The translations under genes were made by a program, and so were the position numbers. 32,000 bases of DNA from an uncultured Chloroflexia bacterium (GTDB lineage: Bacteria; Chloroflexota; Ktedonobacteria; Ktedonobacterales; JADMIN01): NCBI GenBank assembly GCA_963718915.1, contig CAVRAI010000007.1:90001-122000 (forward strand), read 5' to 3'. Of the stretch, positions 10,112-32,000 are shown one piece after another (positions within the stretch are counted from its first letter, which is position 1; every line of letters begins with the position of its first letter). The notes below the pieces were generated by a model. The model ran no database searches. It saw only the letters and a list, made by a program, of their open reading frames with translations, and was not told where the DNA came from.

Positions 10112-10717
10112 TTATAGCCAGCCTTTTTCTTCGGCGATATGCGCCGCCTCGATACGATTGTGCGCGTTGAGCTTCTGCATCGCCACCGAGAGATAGTTGC
10201 GCACGGTGCCCTCGGAGAGATAGAGCGAGGCGGCAATCTCGGCGATACTCGCGCCATGGGCAGCCGCCGCCAGCACGTCGCGCTCGCGCTCGGTCAGCGG
10301 GCTGACGCCGTCACTCAGGGCGGAGACCGCCAGTGTCGGATCAACCACCCGCTCGCCCGCCATCGCCCGGCGGATGGCCGAGGAAAGCTGCGCCGCCGGG
10401 GCATCTTTGAGCAGGAAGCCGACGACTCCGCTCTCCATCGCTCGTCGCAGGTAGCCGGGACGCCCGAATGTCGTCAGCATCAGGATGCGGCAGGCTGGCA
10501 ACTGCGCGTGCACCTGCGCGGCGGCGGTCAGGCCGTCGCAGCCGGGCATCTCGATATCCAGCAGCGCCACATCCGGCTTTGCGGCAAGCGCGGCGGCGAC
10601 CACCTCATCGCCACGGGCAACCTCCGCCACGATCTCCATATCAGCCTCCAGTGAGAGCAGCGCCACCAGCGCGCCCCGCACCATCGCCTGATCTTCGGCC
10701 AACAGAATGCGAATCAT
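10112..10717 (-). CDS. NarL/FixJ-family response regulator (REC + LuxR-type HTH)
   Basis: MIRILLAEDQAMVRGAL...DVALLDIEMPGCDG (receiver domain) and LTERERDVLAAAAHGASIAEIAASLYLSEGTVRNYLSVAMQKL (LuxR HTH). Start at ATG 10717 rather than the track start 10753. Confidence 0.9.
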   Translation of the reverse strand: MIRILLAEDQAMVRGALVALLSLEADMEIVAEVARGDEVVAAALAAKPDVALLDIEMPGCDGLTAAAQVHAQLPACRILMLTTFGRPGYLRRAMESGVVGFLLKDAPAAQLSSAIRRAMAGERVVDPTLAVSALSDGVSPLTERERDVLAAAAHGASIAEIAASLYLSEGTVRNYLSVAMQKLNAHNRIEAAHIAEEKGWL

Positions 10718-10831
10718 GGATGCCGCCTTCTCTCGCGCACATCGGGCATACATCGCCGTCCGATACTAGCAGTTAACGCTTTCCAGCGACGATACGCCAG
10801 TGATGAATGACATTTCTTGCTACTCATGGTC

Positions 10832-11013
10832 GGCTGGCGACTGAAGTCGTGCCTGAAGGGCCTCGGTTGCTGCGCGCGCTCCGCCACAAAACCCGCCGTC
10901 GCGGGTTCACAGAGCTGCTCGCCAGCGGGTATCCCGTTGGGTTACGGTCTGGTCAGTCCGCGCAGGCGGACTTCGTGGCCGCAGGCCCTTCAGGCGCGGT
11001 TTGAACCGCCCGC
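10832..11013 (+). repeat. Copy A of a ~180-nt multi-hairpin dispersed intergenic repeat
   Basis: The 5' 18 nt (ggctggcgactgaagtcg) are identical, and the 3' 59 nt (10955-11013) are 57/59 identical, to the reverse complement of 31041-31215. Internal hairpins include aacccgc-cgtc-gcgggtt and agtccgc-gcag-gcggact. Closing stem gcctgaagggcc (10851-10862) pairs with ggcccttcaggc (10984-10995). Confidence 0.85.
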
Positions 11014-11203
11014 GCTGCTCACCCAGCGCGTGTCCCTCCTATTTTCTAAAACTACATTAACCGCCCGCGTTTCTCGCCAGATGTCATAGCTTCTCATTCC
11101 CCATGTAACGCCGCTTGACATCGCGGGGACTATTGGGCACGGTAATGAGGACGGCGTGAACAGCGTCCACTGAACGATGGCATTGGGAGGAGAGAAAGAC
11201 ATC

Positions 11204-11752
11204 ATGAGCGGATCAACAGACCCACAGAGGCAGGCGGCGACGCTGATCGCGCGTTTCGACGCGGCGTGCGACGGCTTCCTCGTGGCCTTCGCCCAGGCGC
11301 CTGATGAGGCGCTGCCCTATACACCCGCTGGCGAGGAATACGCTCTGGGTATTCTGCCGCTACACCTGCAAGACTCGATGAATCACTATCTCGATGTCTA
11401 CGACCGTATGGCTGCCGCGAACTTTGGGCCGGTGGATCTGGGCGCCGACCCCACGCTCGCGCAGCAGGAGGCCGCACAACACCAGCGACTCGTCACGACA
11501 AAGCCCACCAGCGCGGACCGTGCCGCATTGCTCGACGACCTCAATGCGACCCACAAGAGGGTTACGGAGCGGTTCGGCGTGCTTGACGACGCGGCAGTAA
11601 CGCGCCAATCCGATGTTGTCTATTCCCCCGGAACCGATCCCTATCCCACCTCGGTCGCCGCTATCTTCGGCTGGCTGACCGACCATTACGACGAACACAT
11701 CGTGCAGACCGCGCAACTGCTGGCGCACTGGCAGGCGGAACAGGCGCGATAG
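11204..11752 (+). CDS. DinB-family (DinB_2-like four-helix-bundle) protein
   Basis: ORF 11177-11752; ATG 11204 follows GGAGGAGAGAAAGAC. His-containing helices ([14 protein letters not shown]; [12 protein letters not shown]) are typical of the DinB/YfiT superfamily. Family call is from memory. Confidence 0.65.
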
Positions 11753-20625: not shown

Positions 20626-21402
20626 GTGAGTACTAATCAGCCGCCATCAGCGGCGCTTCAGGATCTGCGCGAGCAGGTCGCGCTCGTGACAGGCGCGAGC
20701 AGTGGCATCGGTCAGGCAGTGGCCAGGGCGCTGGCGCAACGCGGTGTGCGTGTGGCGCTGGCGGCGCGTCGGCTGGAGCGTTTGCGGGCGCTCGCCGAGG
20801 AACTGACGAGCGACGGGCAGGGAGAGGCGCTGGCGCTGGCCTGTGACGTGCGCAATCCTGAGGACGTGCGGGCGGCGGTGAAACAGGCGCTTGATCGCTG
20901 GGGCAAGCTCGATATTCTGGTTGCCAATTCCGGCTTCGGCTATCGCGCGCCGCTGGTGGATGGCGACATTACTCGCTGGAAAGACATGATCGACACCAAC
21001 GTCTACGGCCTGCTGCTCACGCTGAAATATGGCGTCGCGCCGATGCTGGAGCGCGGGCAAGGACATGTGATCGTGACGTCGTCGGTGGCGGGTCGCGTGC
21101 CAACGATGCTTGGCTCGGCCTACTGTGGCAGCAAATTCGCGGCGACGGCCATCGCGGACGTGCTGCGGCAGGAGGTCGGCCCGCGGGGTGTGCGCGTGAC
21201 GACCATCGAGCCGGGGGTCGTTATCTCCGAGTTCCAGCAGGTCGCGGACTATCCCCCCGGCATCCTCGACAACATGCTGAAGGGCGCGACACCGCTTGTC
21301 CCCGCCGACATCGCTCGCGCGGTGGTCTTCGCCATCGAGCAGCCAGCGCACTATGCCATCTCTGAGATGGTGGTACGGCCAACCGGCCAGGCGTTTCCGT
21401 AG
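20626..21402 (+). CDS. Short-chain dehydrogenase/reductase (SDR) family oxidoreductase
   Basis: VTGASSGIGQAVA cofactor motif, NSGF, and catalytic S...YCGSK. GTG start at 20626. Confidence 0.9.
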   Translation: MSTNQPPSAALQDLREQVALVTGASSGIGQAVARALAQRGVRVALAARRLERLRALAEELTSDGQGEALALACDVRNPEDVRAAVKQALDRWGKLDILVANSGFGYRAPLVDGDITRWKDMIDTNVYGLLLTLKYGVAPMLERGQGHVIVTSSVAGRVPTMLGSAYCGSKFAATAIADVLRQEVGPRGVRVTTIEPGVVISEFQQVADYPPGILDNMLKGATPLVPADIARAVVFAIEQPAHYAISEMVVRPTGQAFP

Positions 21403-21409
21403 CCACGTC

Positions 21410-21594
21410 GGCTGGCGGCTGAAGCCGCGCCTAAGGAACCTCGCTGCGCTCTGCCACAAAGCTTGCCTTCGCAGGCTCCAGACCGAGAAGATGCGCGGAC
21501 TTCCAGAACATCTCCCCGTCGGCGTGAGGTTCTGAATGAAATCCGCGCAGGCGGGTTTTGTTGTCGTAGGCCGTTCAGGCGCGGCTTACGAACG
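21410..21594 (+). repeat. Copy B (diverged) of the multi-hairpin dispersed repeat
   Basis: Same module order as copies A and C: ggctggcggctgaagccgcgcct ... ctgccacaaagcttgccttcgcaggctcc ... atccgcgcaggcgggtt ... ggccgttcaggcgcgg. Stems show compensatory changes (gcggc-tgaa-gccgc versus gcgac-tgaa-gtcgc). Starts 8 nt after the SDR stop. Confidence 0.75.
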
Positions 21595-21805: not shown

Positions 21806-22928
21806 TTACGAGGTCGCCGCGCTGAGCGCCTCGCCTGCCCGCGCGGTCAGGTTGGCCTGGATGAAGTGATCCATCTCGCCATTCAGGTAGGCGACGGTGT
21901 CGGACTGGTCGGCGCCCGTACGATGGTCTTTCACCAGCGAGTAGGGATGGATCGTCACCGTGCGAATCTGGTTGCCAAAGTCGGCCTCGACGTGCACCCC
22001 CTTGAGCCGCGCCGCCTCACGCTCGCGCTGCTCGATCTCCAGTTCGTAGAGCTTCGACTTGAGCACGCGGAGCGCCAGCTCGCGGTTCTGGATCTGCGAG
22101 CGCTCGTTCTGGCAGGTGACGACAATGCCCGTTGGCTTGTGGCGGATGCGTACGGCGGAGTCGGTCTTGTTGAGATGCTGGCCGCCCTTGCCGGTCGAGC
22201 GGAAGGTGTCCACATCCAGGTCTTCGGGCCGGATCTTGATCTCAATCGGATCCTCGCCGATATCGGGCATCACTTCAACCTTGGCGAAGGACGTCTGTCT
22301 GCGATGGGCGGCGTCGAAGGGTGAGAGGCGAATCAGCCGGTGCGCGCCCGCCTCGCCACGCAGGTAGCCGTAGGCGTACGGCCCATCCACGCTGAAGGTC
22401 GTGCTCTTGATGCCAGCTTCTTCGCCGGGCATCTCGTCCAGCAGTTCCACTTTGTAGCCGTGTGACTCCGCCCAGCGCATATAGGCGCGCTGCAGCATCT
22501 GCACCCAGTCCATCGCGTCGGTGCCGCCATTACCCGCGTGGATCGAGATGATGGCCGATTTAGCGTCGTGCGGCCCGTTGAGTAGCAGCCGGAAACGCTG
22601 CTTTTCCAGGTCTTCTTCGATCCGCACGAGCGATTCGTCGATCTCGCCCTCGAGCTGGCTATCTGGATCACTCTCGAGCAGTTCGGTCAGTTCGTGGAGT
22701 TCGGCGAGGCGCGCGTCGAGCGATTCCCAGACAAACACCTCGTCACGCAGGCGGCTCATCGTCTGCATCTGTCGCTGCGCATGCACACGGTCGCCGTAGA
22801 AATCAGGCGCGAGCGACTCTTCCTCGATAGCCGCTATCTGCTGCTTTTTGGCAGCGAGGTCAAAGATACACCGTTATTTCATACACCCGGCGTTGTAGTG
22901 CTTCGATGCGGGTCATTAGTTCACTCAT
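21806..22928 (-). CDS. prfB: Peptide chain release factor 2, with programmed +1 ribosomal frameshift (frame 0: 22928-22863; +1 frame: 22861-21806)
   Basis: The main ORF has the SPF tripeptide (RLSPFD) and GGQ (STGKGGQHLNKT). Upstream I read ATG AGT GAA CTA ATG ACC CGC ATC GAA GCA CTA CAA CGC CGG GTG TAT GAA ATA ACG GTG TAT CTT TGA C. This 22-codon frame-0 leader ends in the classical TAT CTT TGA C shift site and continues in +1 as DLAAKKQQIAAIEEESLAPDFYGDR... Confidence 0.9.
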
Positions 22929-29016: not shown

Positions 29017-30693
29017 CTAATACACCACAATCGGCGTGCCGATTGGCGTCCAGTCGTAGAGATACGCCATGTTGTTCTCCGGCAGATTGATGCAGCCGTG
29101 CGAGCCGCCATTGAACGCGGCGGGATCCCAGTGAGGCAGGTTTGTGTCAGGCCCGAACTCGGCGCGCCACCAGGCATCGTGGAGGAAGAACCCGTTGGGC
29201 GCGTAGGCGATGGCATAGTTGATCGGCGTTGGTGCGTACCAGAACGGCGACCCCTTCGGCTCTGGCGAGGTAAACTCGGTGTGGTAGAGCTTGTAGGTCG
29301 CGTAGTGCAGGCCCGGCCATGAAGGAAGCTCCTCACGACCCGTCGTCACGTAGGACCACCAGACCATCTGGCCATTGTCGTAGGCGCGGAGCGTCTGTTC
29401 GCGCAGCGAGACCACGATCACCTTGCCGGTCAGATGGTAGGCCGTATTGATGAGCCACAAATCAGAGGCGTGCGGCTGTGAATGCGGCGTGTTGTCTGAC
29501 AGGTTATCCTTGAGCGCGCGAAGATTCGTCGCCAGATTATTGATCTCGTCGTCCGCGTTCTGATATGACTCCAGGTTATTGGCCGCATACAGGTTATCAT
29601 GCGCGTCGCCGATGCCCACCCATGGGTTCGAATACTCGTAGTCCGCGGAATAGGTGCTGCCATCCCACTTGCTGGTCAGCTGGATACTCGCGACCGAGTT
29701 GACCAGCTTCTGGAGTTGCGCGTAATCGCTAAAGGCCTTCGCCTTGAGCAGCGGCAACGACATCGCGTCGATCTGCTTGTTGATGGCCTGGCCAAGCTCG
29801 AGGTAATCGGTCGTGCTCTTCGCCGCCTTCAGCTGAGCCACATCCTCGTCGTGCTGCTGCTGGAAAGTCGTCGTTTCCTGGCCGTAGGTCTTGAGCAGGT
29901 CAATGCGCGCCTGGAAAGAGTCGAGCAGAGCAGCGCCGATATATGGGGTCGCTTCGGCCTGGTCGGCCATCAACTGGACGATCTGGCCGTCGATCACCTC
30001 AACCAATTTGGCGTAGCGATCGCCGGGCAGGCCAGCGCGAATCGCGTCGAGATTCTGCTGATACTCGATCTGCCCCATCGCGGAGTTCATCCCGGCGTTC
30101 TGCAGCGTGCGCAGAATCATCTGGAAGTCCTGGAGCTTCTGGTAGGCTGGCCAGAGCGCGTGCAGCGCCGCCGTCTGCTGCTGCGCGGTCGTGTCTACTC
30201 TGGCATAGTCGCCCACCGTCTTCGCGACGTTAAAGTCCTGCACCGCCTGGTCGAGCCGCGCCTGATAGATATCGATCTCGCTAAAGCCCTCGCCGCGTAG
30301 TTGCGTGACCGCCTTCGCGAAGGCCTGGATGTCGTCGTTGGCCTGTGTCTGCAGGGTCTGCTGGGCGTTCTGCTCCATACCGACCAGTTGATTGTAGAGC
30401 AGTGTGTAGTTCGCCGCGGCATCCTGGTAGTTATAGTTGAAGCCGCCCTCACCGGACGAAATCTTGGTTTCTTGCGAGACGATGGGTTGCAGCATGGAAT
30501 CTGGCAGGCCAAGGGTCGTGCGCGCGTGCCGCAACTCGCCATCGAGGCGCGCCTTGTTCTGCTGCGCCGCCTCCTGGCTAGGGTCGCTGCCACAGGCCGC
30601 CAGCGTCATGCAGACCACAACAACAATCAGCAGCGCCATGACCCAGCGGGGTGTTCGGCGGGGCAGTGTATTCACAGACAGGCGTCCAAACAT
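29017..30693 (-). CDS. L,D-transpeptidase (YkuD-domain) lipoprotein with a long helical Gln-rich N-terminal region
   Basis: The C-terminus ...HDAWWRAEFGPDTNLPHWDPAAFNGGSHGCINLPENNMAYLYDW has the YkuD catalytic H...GC motif. Signal and lipobox VVVVCMTLAAC/GSD. ATG 30693 is preceded by GAGGAGG. Confidence 0.85.
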   Translation of the reverse strand: MFGRLSVNTLPRRTPRWVMALLIVVVVCMTLAACGSDPSQEAAQQNKARLDGELRHARTTLGLPDSMLQPIVSQETKISSGEGGFNYNYQDAAANYTLLYNQLVGMEQNAQQTLQTQANDDIQAFAKAVTQLRGEGFSEIDIYQARLDQAVQDFNVAKTVGDYARVDTTAQQQTAALHALWPAYQKLQDFQMILRTLQNAGMNSAMGQIEYQQNLDAIRAGLPGDRYAKLVEVIDGQIVQLMADQAEATPYIGAALLDSFQARIDLLKTYGQETTTFQQQHDEDVAQLKAAKSTTDYLELGQAINKQIDAMSLPLLKAKAFSDYAQLQKLVNSVASIQLTSKWDGSTYSADYEYSNPWVGIGDAHDNLYAANNLESYQNADDEINNLATNLRALKDNLSDNTPHSQPHASDLWLINTAYHLTGKVIVVSLREQTLRAYDNGQMVWWSYVTTGREELPSWPGLHYATYKLYHTEFTSPEPKGSPFWYAPTPINYAIAYAPNGFFLHDAWWRAEFGPDTNLPHWDPAAFNGGSHGCINLPENNMAYLYDWTPIGTPIVVY

Positions 30694-31040
30694 GCTTGAC
30701 CGAACCTCCTCGCGCCACACCGCGGAGTCACAACGAAGCGCGCATCATGCACCGGCATTGGCGCGACGGAGACTCTCCTCATCCGCTTAACCGAATAAAC
30801 GTACAGAGTAGCCCTGGGGAACATCAATCGCTCGTGAGTACTGTGGAATCGCGCCTTCAAGAGTCGCGCGTGAGCGTGCGCTCAGGAAACAGGAAGCCGC
30901 CCAGTTCACTCCTGAACATAAGAGTAACCTGGCGGCAACTTCCGTTTCCATAGTATGAGACGAAGCGGCTATCTGCTTCTGTGCTGGGGGCGGCCGAAAA
31001 GGGATACGAAGGGATGTAATGGAACGTCACGGCGCTGAAG

Positions 31041-31215
31041 GCGGGCGGTTAAAACCGCGCCTGAATGGCCTGCGGCCACGAAGTCCGCCTGCGCGGACTC
31101 GCCAGACAGCGTCTCGTGGATCGCACCCAGCCACGGGCGACTGTTTGAACCTGCGCAGGCAGGTTTCGCGGCGGAGCGGAGCGAGGCCATATAGGCGCGA
31201 CTTCAGTCGCCAGCC
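31041..31215 (-). repeat. Copy C of the multi-hairpin dispersed repeat (inverted relative to copy A)
   Basis: The reverse complement begins ggctggcgactgaagtcgcgcc and ends agtccgcgcaggcggacttcgtggccgcaggccattcaggcgcggttttaaccgcccgc (57/59 identical to copy A). It ends 4 nt from the ffh stop. Confidence 0.85.
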
Positions 31216-31218
31216 GTC

Positions 31219-32000
31219 CTACCGGCCGAACGGGCTACCTCCGCCTAGCCCACCCAGTCCGCCCAGACCACCACCAAGGCTGCCTAATCGCCCTCTGCGG
31301 CCTTTTCTGCCAGGCTGCTGCATCCCCATCACCTGCTTCATCATCGTCTGCGCCTGTTTGAATGAGGCGAGCAACTGGTTGATCTCCTGCGGGGTCGTGC
31401 CGCTACCCTTCGCGATGCGCCGCTTGCGGCTGCCGTTGAGGATTTCGGGGTTGTGGCGCTCCTCCATCGTCATCGAGAGGATGATCGCCTCGGTCTGCTT
31501 CATCTGGTCGCCTTCCAGCGCGGCCTTGACCTGCGGATCGCTGAGCGCTTTGCCCATGCCGGGGATCATTTCGAGCAACTGCGCCATCGGCCCCATCTTG
31601 CGCATACTGCGCATCTGCTGCAGGAAGTCTTCGAGGTCGAACCGGCCTGTGCCCATCTTGCGGGCCATCTTCTCGGCCTGCTTCTCGTCGATCTGCTCGC
31701 GGGCGCGCTCGATCAGCGACATCACATCGCCCATGCCCAGAATGCGCTGTGCCAGCCGGTCGGGGTAGAACTGCTCCAGCGCGTCGAGCTTCTCGCCTGT
31801 GCCCATGAACTTGATCGGCACGCCGGTCACCTGGCGCACAGAAAGCGCCGCGCCACCACGGGCGTCGCCATCCATCTTGGTCAGGATGAGGCCGGTCAGC
31901 CCGACGGTCTTGTTGAACTCGTCGGCCACGCGCACGGCGTCCTGTCCGGTCATCGCATCCACCACCAGCAGCACTTCCTGCGGCTGGGTGCGTTGGCGGA
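31219..32000 (-). CDS. ffh: Signal recognition particle protein Ffh, C-terminal part (G-domain end + M domain); the 5' end lies beyond the window
   Basis: LLVVDAMTGQDA, LTKMDGDARGGAALS, the Met-rich M domain (MRSMRKMGPMAQLLEMIPGMG) and a Gly-rich tail. The frame stays open upstream of the track start to position 32000 (...RQRTQPQEVLLVV). Confidence 0.95.
   Translation of the reverse strand, partial: RQRTQPQEVLLVVDAMTGQDAVRVADEFNKTVGLTGLILTKMDGDARGGAALSVRQVTGVPIKFMGTGEKLDALEQFYPDRLAQRILGMGDVMSLIERAREQIDEKQAEKMARKMGTGRFDLEDFLQQMRSMRKMGPMAQLLEMIPGMGKALSDPQVKAALEGDQMKQTEAIILSMTMEERHNPEILNGSRKRRIAKGSGTTPQEINQLLASFKQAQTMMKQVMGMQQPGRKGRRGRLGSLGGGLGGLGGLGGGSPFGR

Follow-up and report, generated by a model that had tools for sequence, protein, structure and literature searches.

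What is a hairpin-rich repeat of about 180 nucleotides that lies between genes three times within 32 kb: an RNA gene, or DNA that has moved? The question is raised by a stretch of 32,000 nucleotides from an uncultured Chloroflexia bacterium (assembly GCA_963718915.1, contig CAVRAI010000007.1, positions 90,001 to 122,000; the whole stretch is called the window here), which holds three copies of such a repeat, A, B and C. These copies probably represent a family of DNA elements in Ktedonobacteria (Chloroflexota) that is non-autonomous, is similar to repetitive extragenic palindromic (REP) sequences and their hairpin-forming doublets (REPINs) and is mobilised by a Y1 transposase, rather than an RNA gene. 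Each copy is built from two inverted units, the same units are dispersed through related genomes as doublets and singlets, and a small Y1 transposase gene is itself enclosed by them.

Two inverted units in each copy

The original prediction described each copy as a string of short stems. Its modules are all present: in A there are the hairpins gcgac-tgaa-gtcgt (10837-10850), aacccgc-cgtc-gcgggtt (10890-10907) and agtccgc-gcag-gcggact (10955-10972), and a long-range helix pairs 10851-10862 with 10984-10995. A and C share their 5' end (GGCTGGCGACTGAAGTCG, 10832-10849) and a 59-nt 3' block in which 2 positions differ, and the stem-preserving double change from GGGCC/GGCCC in A to TGGCC/GGCCA in C is there as well. 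The anatomy, however, is not that of a single string. A profile made from the 3' block also matches the 5' part of every window copy on the opposite strand, so the 180-nt element is two inverted, diverged copies of one unit of about 65 nt.

This unit begins with a hairpin, H1 (GTCCGC-GCAG-GCGGAC, or the variant ACCCGC..GCGGGT), followed by the linker TT(C/G)G(T/C)GG, a second hairpin H2, the linker (N)TTCAGG, a third hairpin H3 (GCGGT-TTCA-ACCGC) and the end CC(N)GC. H2 is short and variable in both sequence and length; 112 distinct sequences were found with the stem kept, for example GGCC/GGCC, GGCGC/GCGCC, GGCAC/GTGCC and GGCGGC/GCCGCC. Lone units folded as single-stranded DNA (ssDNA) form precisely the three hairpins H1, H2 and H3. 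The parts of the window copies, as given by the repeat finder and the unit profile, are as follows.

10829 to 11015, plus strand: element A, a complete doublet of about 185 nt in the spacer of divergent genes (repeat finder, unit profile)
10832 to 10908, minus strand: left unit of A, inverted, with an ACCCGC-type H1 (unit profile, E 4.7e-5)
10950 to 11014, plus strand: right unit of A, with a GTCCGC-type H1 (unit profile, E 1e-19)
11056 to 11072, plus strand: possible solo remnant TTAACCGCCCGCG, equal to the last 13 nt of the unit (read from the sequence, 45 nt downstream of A)
21407 to 21590, plus strand: element B, a doublet with a decayed right end that lacks H3 (repeat finder, unit profile)
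21410 to 21481, minus strand: left unit of B, inverted, with a GCCTGC/GCAAGC variant of H1 (unit profile, E 2.2e-5)
21534 to 21588, plus strand: right unit of B, whose profile match ends at model position 59 of 73 (E 8e-13)
31039 to 31219, minus strand: element C, a complete doublet, inverted relative to A (repeat finder, unit profile)
31039 to 31104, minus strand: GTCCGC-type unit of C, the top-scoring unit of the window (unit profile, E 5.9e-21; ssDNA fold z = -2.8)
31151 to 31215, plus strand: partner unit of C, with an ACCTGC-type H1, inverted relative to the other C unit (unit profile, E 5.3e-5)

The right unit of A is the clearest to follow, with H1 at 10955-10972, TTCGTGG, H2 at 10977-10987, CTTCAGG, H3 at 10996-11009 and a terminal CCGCG, and its ssDNA fold has the three hairpins. 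In the left unit, the end hairpin (10837-10850) and H1' (10890-10907) are kept, and the H2 position is enlarged and degenerate. The repeat finder pairs A and C as inverted arms, 10947-11013 with 31041-31107 (67 nt, 94%) and 10828-10865 with 31182-31219 (38 nt, 87%), and it reports B as a third, direct copy from 21407, together with an internal inverted repeat in A (10833-10863 with 10983-11013; 31 nt, 77%). Over their length, A and C are 75% identical, and A and B, like B and C, about 66%; the longest exact run between A and C is 33 nt. The repeats are beyond what chance would give: for a 21-nt core of the unit, 0.01 matches would be expected in the window and 2 are there, and the profile E values of the 3' units are 1e-19 to 1e-21. 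The short TTAACCGCCCGCG stretch near A may be the remnant of another unit, or it may be chance.

Dispersed units and the transposase gene between them

A strict pattern built on the conserved 3' block was used to scan a collection with one genome per species. It gave 69 loci, nearly all in metagenome-assembled genomes (MAGs) labelled Ktedonobacterales, 'Chloroflexia' or 'Thermomicrobiales'. In many of them the 3' block stands alone; in others the element is compact and symmetric, at about 135 nt. With the unit profile, the 69 loci and the window together gave 133 units, and after three further Y1 loci were added there were 43 doublets and 60 singlets. Doublet lengths fall into two modes, 132-157 nt and 175-190 nt, the window copies belonging to the second. 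The two partners of a doublet differ at column 17 of H1 in 41 of 42 cases, whereas units of the same genome that are not partners match there about half of the time; the doublets are thus heterodimers that pair a GTCCGC-type with an ACCCGC-type unit. The 483 kb of DNA fetched contain about 20 elements beyond those used for finding the loci, or about one per 23 kb near known copies. Scanned viral contigs had no copy of the repeat.

The units come in variants that are specific to a genome, and dispersed units and Y1-flanking units of the same MAG have them in common. Examples are an H2 of GGCC-GTGA-GGCC in DASUBC01 and a G...C closing pair of H1 in JAICSR01. Flanking direct repeats, which the original prediction had proposed to look for, were at chance level in the 43 doublets (k = 3-6, offsets 0-9). 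The lack of a target-site duplication fits Y1 transposition and argues against a MITE (miniature inverted-repeat transposable element) moved by a DDE-type enzyme. No conserved target sequence was seen in the outer flanks of 139 units. Another candidate analogue, the Nezha MITE, was set aside: flanking direct repeats belong to its description, and none are present here.

The transposase gene was found through the repeat. In locus L068, two outward-facing units surround a reading frame of 465 nt whose product matches Y1_Tnp (PF01797, 3.7e-20) and the NCBIfam IS200 model NF033573 (61.6 bits, cutoff 55). A tblastn search with this protein against all fetched DNA gave two more Y1 genes, one in L026 and one in L009, each with units or doublets on its flanks. 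A profile search gave more than 7000 relatives of the protein, which are called 'IS200/IS605 family transposase' or 'RayT' depending on the source. From these, L070, L072 and L073 were picked solely for their long contigs, and in all three the Y1 gene is bracketed by inverted units. Six of six Y1 genes, from six assemblies, therefore have inverted units within about 10-90 nt, three of them found via the repeat and three via the protein. The gene with its flanks covers about 600-625 bp, as in L070:

3920 to 3980 of L070, minus strand: unit
4001 to 4438 of L070: Y1 gene
4457 to 4522 of L070, plus strand: unit

In L068, L070 and L073 the flanking units are inverted copies of one type. Independent samples show the gene in the same context again (L070 and L071; L073 to L075), and none of the six loci showed a tnpB. 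The proteins have about 145 amino acids (range 142-156) and intact reading frames, with the motifs DHVH, KWQ and YIARQKEHH (more generally YI(A/R)xQxEHH); the HVH and the catalytic tyrosine are invariant. Their nearest solved relatives are the TnpA proteins of ISDra2 and IS608 (about 3e-11 to 3e-10), and the structure of the E. coli REP-associated tyrosine transposase (RAYT) gave no sequence match.

Put together, the elements could move in the following way. The gene for a small Y1 HUH transposase of the IS200-like, subclass-1.2 type would lie between two inverted units at another place in the genome. The enzyme would recognise the folded hairpins and the linkers where the DNA is single-stranded, as it may be at replication forks, and would cut and rejoin the DNA there, so that doublets spread in trans into intergenic DNA without a target-site duplication. 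Copies that have decayed, like B, and singlets would be remnants that can no longer move. Binding, cleavage and mobilisation by the Y1 enzyme, and the single-stranded intermediates, are what we infer here, and the gene is presumably present in the window's own genome.

Several other features were seen around these loci. In L072 (3700-3990) a 21-22-nt repeat, GGGCGATTTTAATCCGCC, which comes from the H3 end of the unit, is found about 13 times in tandem directly upstream of the Y1 gene. In L043 and L019, units are followed by shorter end duplications. The possible remnant at 11056-11072 may be compared with these three cases, and the duplications in L072, L043 and L019 may be by-products of end processing. 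The Y1 cassettes of L070 (1-8438) and L072 (1-8429) lie within restriction-modification or defence gene clusters, one with an SNF2 helicase and an Eco57I/MmeI-like enzyme, the other with EcoEI_R_C and Methylase_S. Clear units were also found on two contigs binned as Alphaproteobacteria, Roseobacter sp. (L060, 3153-3216, E 5e-10) and Stellaceae (L028, 522-589, E 9e-18); these are either mis-binned or point to a wider host range. Palindromic repeats abound in the intergenic DNA of these organisms, and the same genomes have other small hairpin families as well, one of the type CCCCTCTCC...GGAGAGGGG and, in the spacer between a short-chain dehydrogenase/reductase (SDR) gene and a release-factor gene in relatives, a long GGCTAATCC...GGATTAGCC hairpin. 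Such repeats are found at L054 4732-4831, L157 1470-1520 and 1590-1630, L164 2680-2790 and L165 2685-2760.

Moving element, fossil or RNA

By the gene calls of the window all three copies are intergenic, as had been predicted. Their neighbours matter for what follows.

10112 to 10753, minus strand: LuxR-type response regulator gene, on the left of A
11204 to 11752, plus strand: DinB_2 gene, on the right of A
20626 to 21402, plus strand: SDR gene, on the left of B
21806 to 22786, minus strand: release-factor gene, convergent, on the right of B
29017 to 30720, minus strand: YkuD-domain gene, with C upstream of it
31219 to 31974, minus strand: ffh, flanking C

At site A, relatives named Ktedonobacterales (DinB 82-89% identical) have a spacer without a unit, and share the gene order Redoxin, response regulator, DinB and pyridine-nucleotide oxidoreductase. 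At site B, relatives whose SDR is 86-94% identical have the SDR and release-factor genes in the same orientation with no unit between them. The two genes are adjacent in L164 and L165, with spacers of 223 and 209 nt, compared with 403 nt in the window, and L166 has an extra gene between them. For copy C, a metagenome scan with an ffh fragment gave only distant relatives, none above 66% identity, and no site orthologous to it. The original prediction had also suggested that the inverted copies A and C could mediate an inversion of the DNA between them. At sites A and B nothing supports this: relatives without the elements keep the gene order across both sites, and the exact run shared by A and C is short. 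Two further observations belong to these sites. In L164, the closest relative at site B, GGCTGGCGAC lies right behind the SDR stop codon (2578-2590) and is the 10-mer that opens A and C, with no unit after it; a remnant, a preferred target and chance are all possible. L157 and L161 share a conserved non-coding block (1620-1840 in both, about 220 nt) upstream of DinB, which the window lacks and which matches no Rfam family at the gathering threshold.

Other sites bear on how long the elements persist. L047 and L020 have three neighbouring sites occupied in both, with flanks 80-85% identical and with the singlet or doublet state varying, which argues for long persistence and for decay of doublets to singlets. 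In another case, the doublet of L045, the orthologue in L054 has an unrelated hairpin repeat instead.

Several points weigh against a family mobilised by a Y1 enzyme. The window copies are old, at 66-75% identity, and give no support for recent mobility. The spacers at sites A and B cannot be aligned with those of the relatives, so the comparison gives no clean pair of filled and empty sites and defines neither exact ends nor a target motif. For this genome, the tblastn search covered the 32-kb window and found no Y1 gene there. The spacing of about 23 kb would suggest on the order of a hundred or more units per genome, but the numbers per genome, of units and of Y1 genes alike, are extrapolated rather than counted. 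While the protein passes the NCBIfam IS200 model, it fails the REP-associated model NF047646 with 20 bits against a cutoff of 80. The transposase subclass that it resembles, subclass 1.2 of TnpAY1, is listed with 'no' for REPs, generally lacks terminal structures of the IS200 type and is mostly found in Cyanobacteria and Bacteroidetes (PMC6006769).

Given the first of these points, the units could be fixed fossils, or palindromes taken over for another use such as sites for a host DNA-binding protein, that no longer move, the flanked Y1 gene being a relic. The divergence of the window copies, the three sites shared by L047 and L020 and the large number of singlets all fit this. We still regard it as unlikely, as the genome-specific variants common to Y1-flanking and dispersed units point to continued turnover or co-evolution within genomes, presence and absence of elements differ among relatives, and the Y1 reading frames are intact with their catalytic motifs conserved.

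The other possibility is that the element is a functional structured RNA, either a small RNA or a 3'-UTR (untranslated region) stabiliser or terminator transcribed together with the gene upstream. The original prediction left the choice between RNA and structured DNA open, and there are reasons to take the RNA seriously. B begins 4 nt past the stop codon of the SDR gene and C 3 nt past that of ffh, both in sense orientation, the predicted fold is strong (z about -4.2), and the stems covary. Moreover, REPs elsewhere are reported to alter mRNA stability and termination if they are transcribed (PMC3733652), and a side effect of this kind may occur here too.

The covariation was measured in 139 distinct aligned units over fifteen pairs, taken from H1, H3 and the outer part of H2, with shuffles and slid partners as controls. 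Paired cells make up 92.5%, compared with 84.0% after shuffling, and 203 cells are changed on both sides, compared with 52.8 in shuffles and 10-25 with slid partners. The outer pairs of H1 alone occur as AU 79, GC 24 and CG 22, as GC 93 and AU 40, and as UA 72 and CG 54. The double substitutions noted between A and C thus hold across the family. The stem structure is under selection, but the covariation does not speak for RNA. An A-C mismatch is a G-T mismatch on the other strand, and the two are about equally frequent (G-T/T-G 25, A-C/C-A 22), so no strand is favoured. The single-strand fold has a z of -4.2 on one strand and -4.1 on the other, so that the folding energy gives no strand either. 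RNAalifold on the 139-unit alignment returned just H1 and, for invariant columns, an alternative pairing; gaps in H2 spoil the alignment, so this result was not used.

Other evidence against an RNA comes from position and annotation. None of the three window copies contains a hairpin followed by a T-run as in a terminator, and copy A is in the spacer between divergent genes, upstream of a TTGACA-containing block that is conserved before the DinB gene in relatives. No tRNA or tmRNA was found in the window. Rfam, which the original prediction had named as a check, has no match in the window at the gathering threshold, and around copy A there was nothing meaningful up to E 10. An RNA gene would also leave unexplained why the transposase gene is flanked by units in all six genomes. 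Taken together, this makes the RNA quite improbable, and what stands of the original choice is the structured DNA, a REP/BIME-like element (BIME, bacterial interspersed mosaic element) with inverted doublets, dispersal and a flanked Y1 gene.

It is worth adding what the best Rfam score in the window was, since automated annotation could mislabel the units as CRISPR repeats. RF01356 (CRISPR-DR28) scores 25.2 bits at 10954-10977 on the minus strand and 16 bits at 10885-10908 on the plus strand, with a threshold of 35. Its 24-nt consensus, GGCAAaGCCCGCCUGCGCGGGCuA, corresponds to the linker and H1 of one unit variant on the opposite strand. Locus L161 (754-777) matches it exactly, with 41.5 bits, and nineteen other loci gave no match. 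A CRISPR reading was rejected: there is no repeat-spacer array anywhere, a lone unit variant matches RF01356, and 24 of the roughly 65 nt are covered. The RF01356 seed may itself be derived from such repeats.

Finally, a classical MITE with terminal inverted repeats (TIRs), moved by a DDE-type insertion sequence transposase, is hardly credible, even though A has imperfect TIRs of 31 nt (77%) and the elements are 130-190 nt long, intergenic and dispersed, because the 43 doublets have no target-site duplications at any offset, the sole transposase gene found between such ends is a Y1 HUH gene, and solo units are common, as they are for REPs.

Relation to known systems

REPs and REPINs with their RAYTs are the best-studied population of mobile DNA in bacteria that is long-lived, vertically inherited and non-autonomous. 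To our knowledge, almost all that has been learned about them comes from Proteobacteria and class-2 RAYTs. It is quite possible, though we would stop short of calling it probable, that the units described here are the first DNA partner of the orphan Y1 HUH subclass 1.2, and that in Ktedonobacteria a pairing like that of REPIN and RAYT evolved independently, from the IS200 side, with a unit of three hairpins and nearly obligate heterodimers that persist between species at orthologous sites (flanks 80-85% identical). If this is true, a structurally different unit and an IS200-like subclass thought to be without partners would mean that such partnerships arose more than once. The orphan subclass would gain a substrate that can be tested, three hairpins and two conserved linkers, and there would be an explanation for a class of repeats that abounds between the genes of the large, repeat-rich Ktedonobacteria genomes. 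In practice, the units should be masked when these genomes are searched for small RNAs, terminators or CRISPR arrays.

The likeness to REPs, BIMEs and REPINs lies in the many short, extragenic palindromic units, often in inverted pairs that form a larger hairpin, with singlets as apparent remnants. A REPtron, known from Proteobacteria and Cyanobacteria, consists of a RAYT (TnpA-REP) gene and inverted REPs (PMC3116915, PMC6006769, PMC8266576). Here too a small Y1 HUH gene lies between inverted copies of the same units, there is no target duplication, and the unit variants are specific to the genome. As in the Y and Z REP pair of E. coli (PMC6006769), the doublets join two unit subtypes. The unit itself is different, however. 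A canonical REP is a single palindrome of 20-40 nt with a GTAG tag at its 5' side, whereas this unit has about 65 nt, three hairpins and two conserved linkers. GTAG is absent, and the nearest equivalent of a GT[AG]G tag is the G(T/C)GG at the foot of H2, which is more than 90% conserved at 3 of 4 positions and has its last two G in the H2 stem. In contrast to class-2 RAYTs, the Y1 protein has no Y---NP motif, and the host is a Chloroflexota lineage, the Ktedonobacteria.

With the IS200/IS605 family (IS608, ISDra2), the elements have in common the Y1_Tnp fold family, hairpins near the ends and the lack of a target duplication. In IS608, the left and right subterminal hairpins are dissimilar and lie on one strand. 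Here, the ends are inverted copies of one unit type, as seen in L068, L070 and L073. Subclass 1.1 has a mean of 4.8 near-identical transposase copies per genome (PMC6006769); in contrast, most clusters of the Y1 protein here are on 1-2 contigs, counted by contigs rather than by whole genomes. Subclass 1.2 has the motifs DH[IV]H, WQ and Y---Q--HH, a median length of 148 amino acids and a low copy number (PMC6006769). The Y1 proteins found here match it in motifs and length, resemble it in having clusters on few contigs and, judged by motifs only, would belong there, but their genes are in a REPtron-like arrangement and in Chloroflexota. In the parts of the supplement of Quentin et al. 2018 (PMC6006769) that were searched, no Chloroflexi entries were found.

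TIRYTs are another comparison. They belong mainly to subclass 2.1, have a C-terminal helix-turn-helix (HTH) domain and a TIR consensus of GGGG[AT][CG]A[CG] (Di Nocera et al. 2013, PMC3733652). They too have a Y1 gene between long inverted repeats that are also dispersed as a family, but the protein here is without the C-terminal HTH domain and the ends are hairpin-rich units. The only REPs that we found reported from Chloroflexi are the GTAG-23 repeats of Thermomicrobium roseum (PMC3733652). A search of the literature on Ktedonobacter or Ktedonobacteria together with REP or REPtron found no description of repeats like these, and one paper on features of Ktedonobacteria genomes does not mention them. 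The best reading is therefore of an element that works like a REPIN but stands outside the canonical family of GTAG REPs and class-2 RAYTs, with an enzyme on the IS200 side and with ends unlike those of IS200/IS605.

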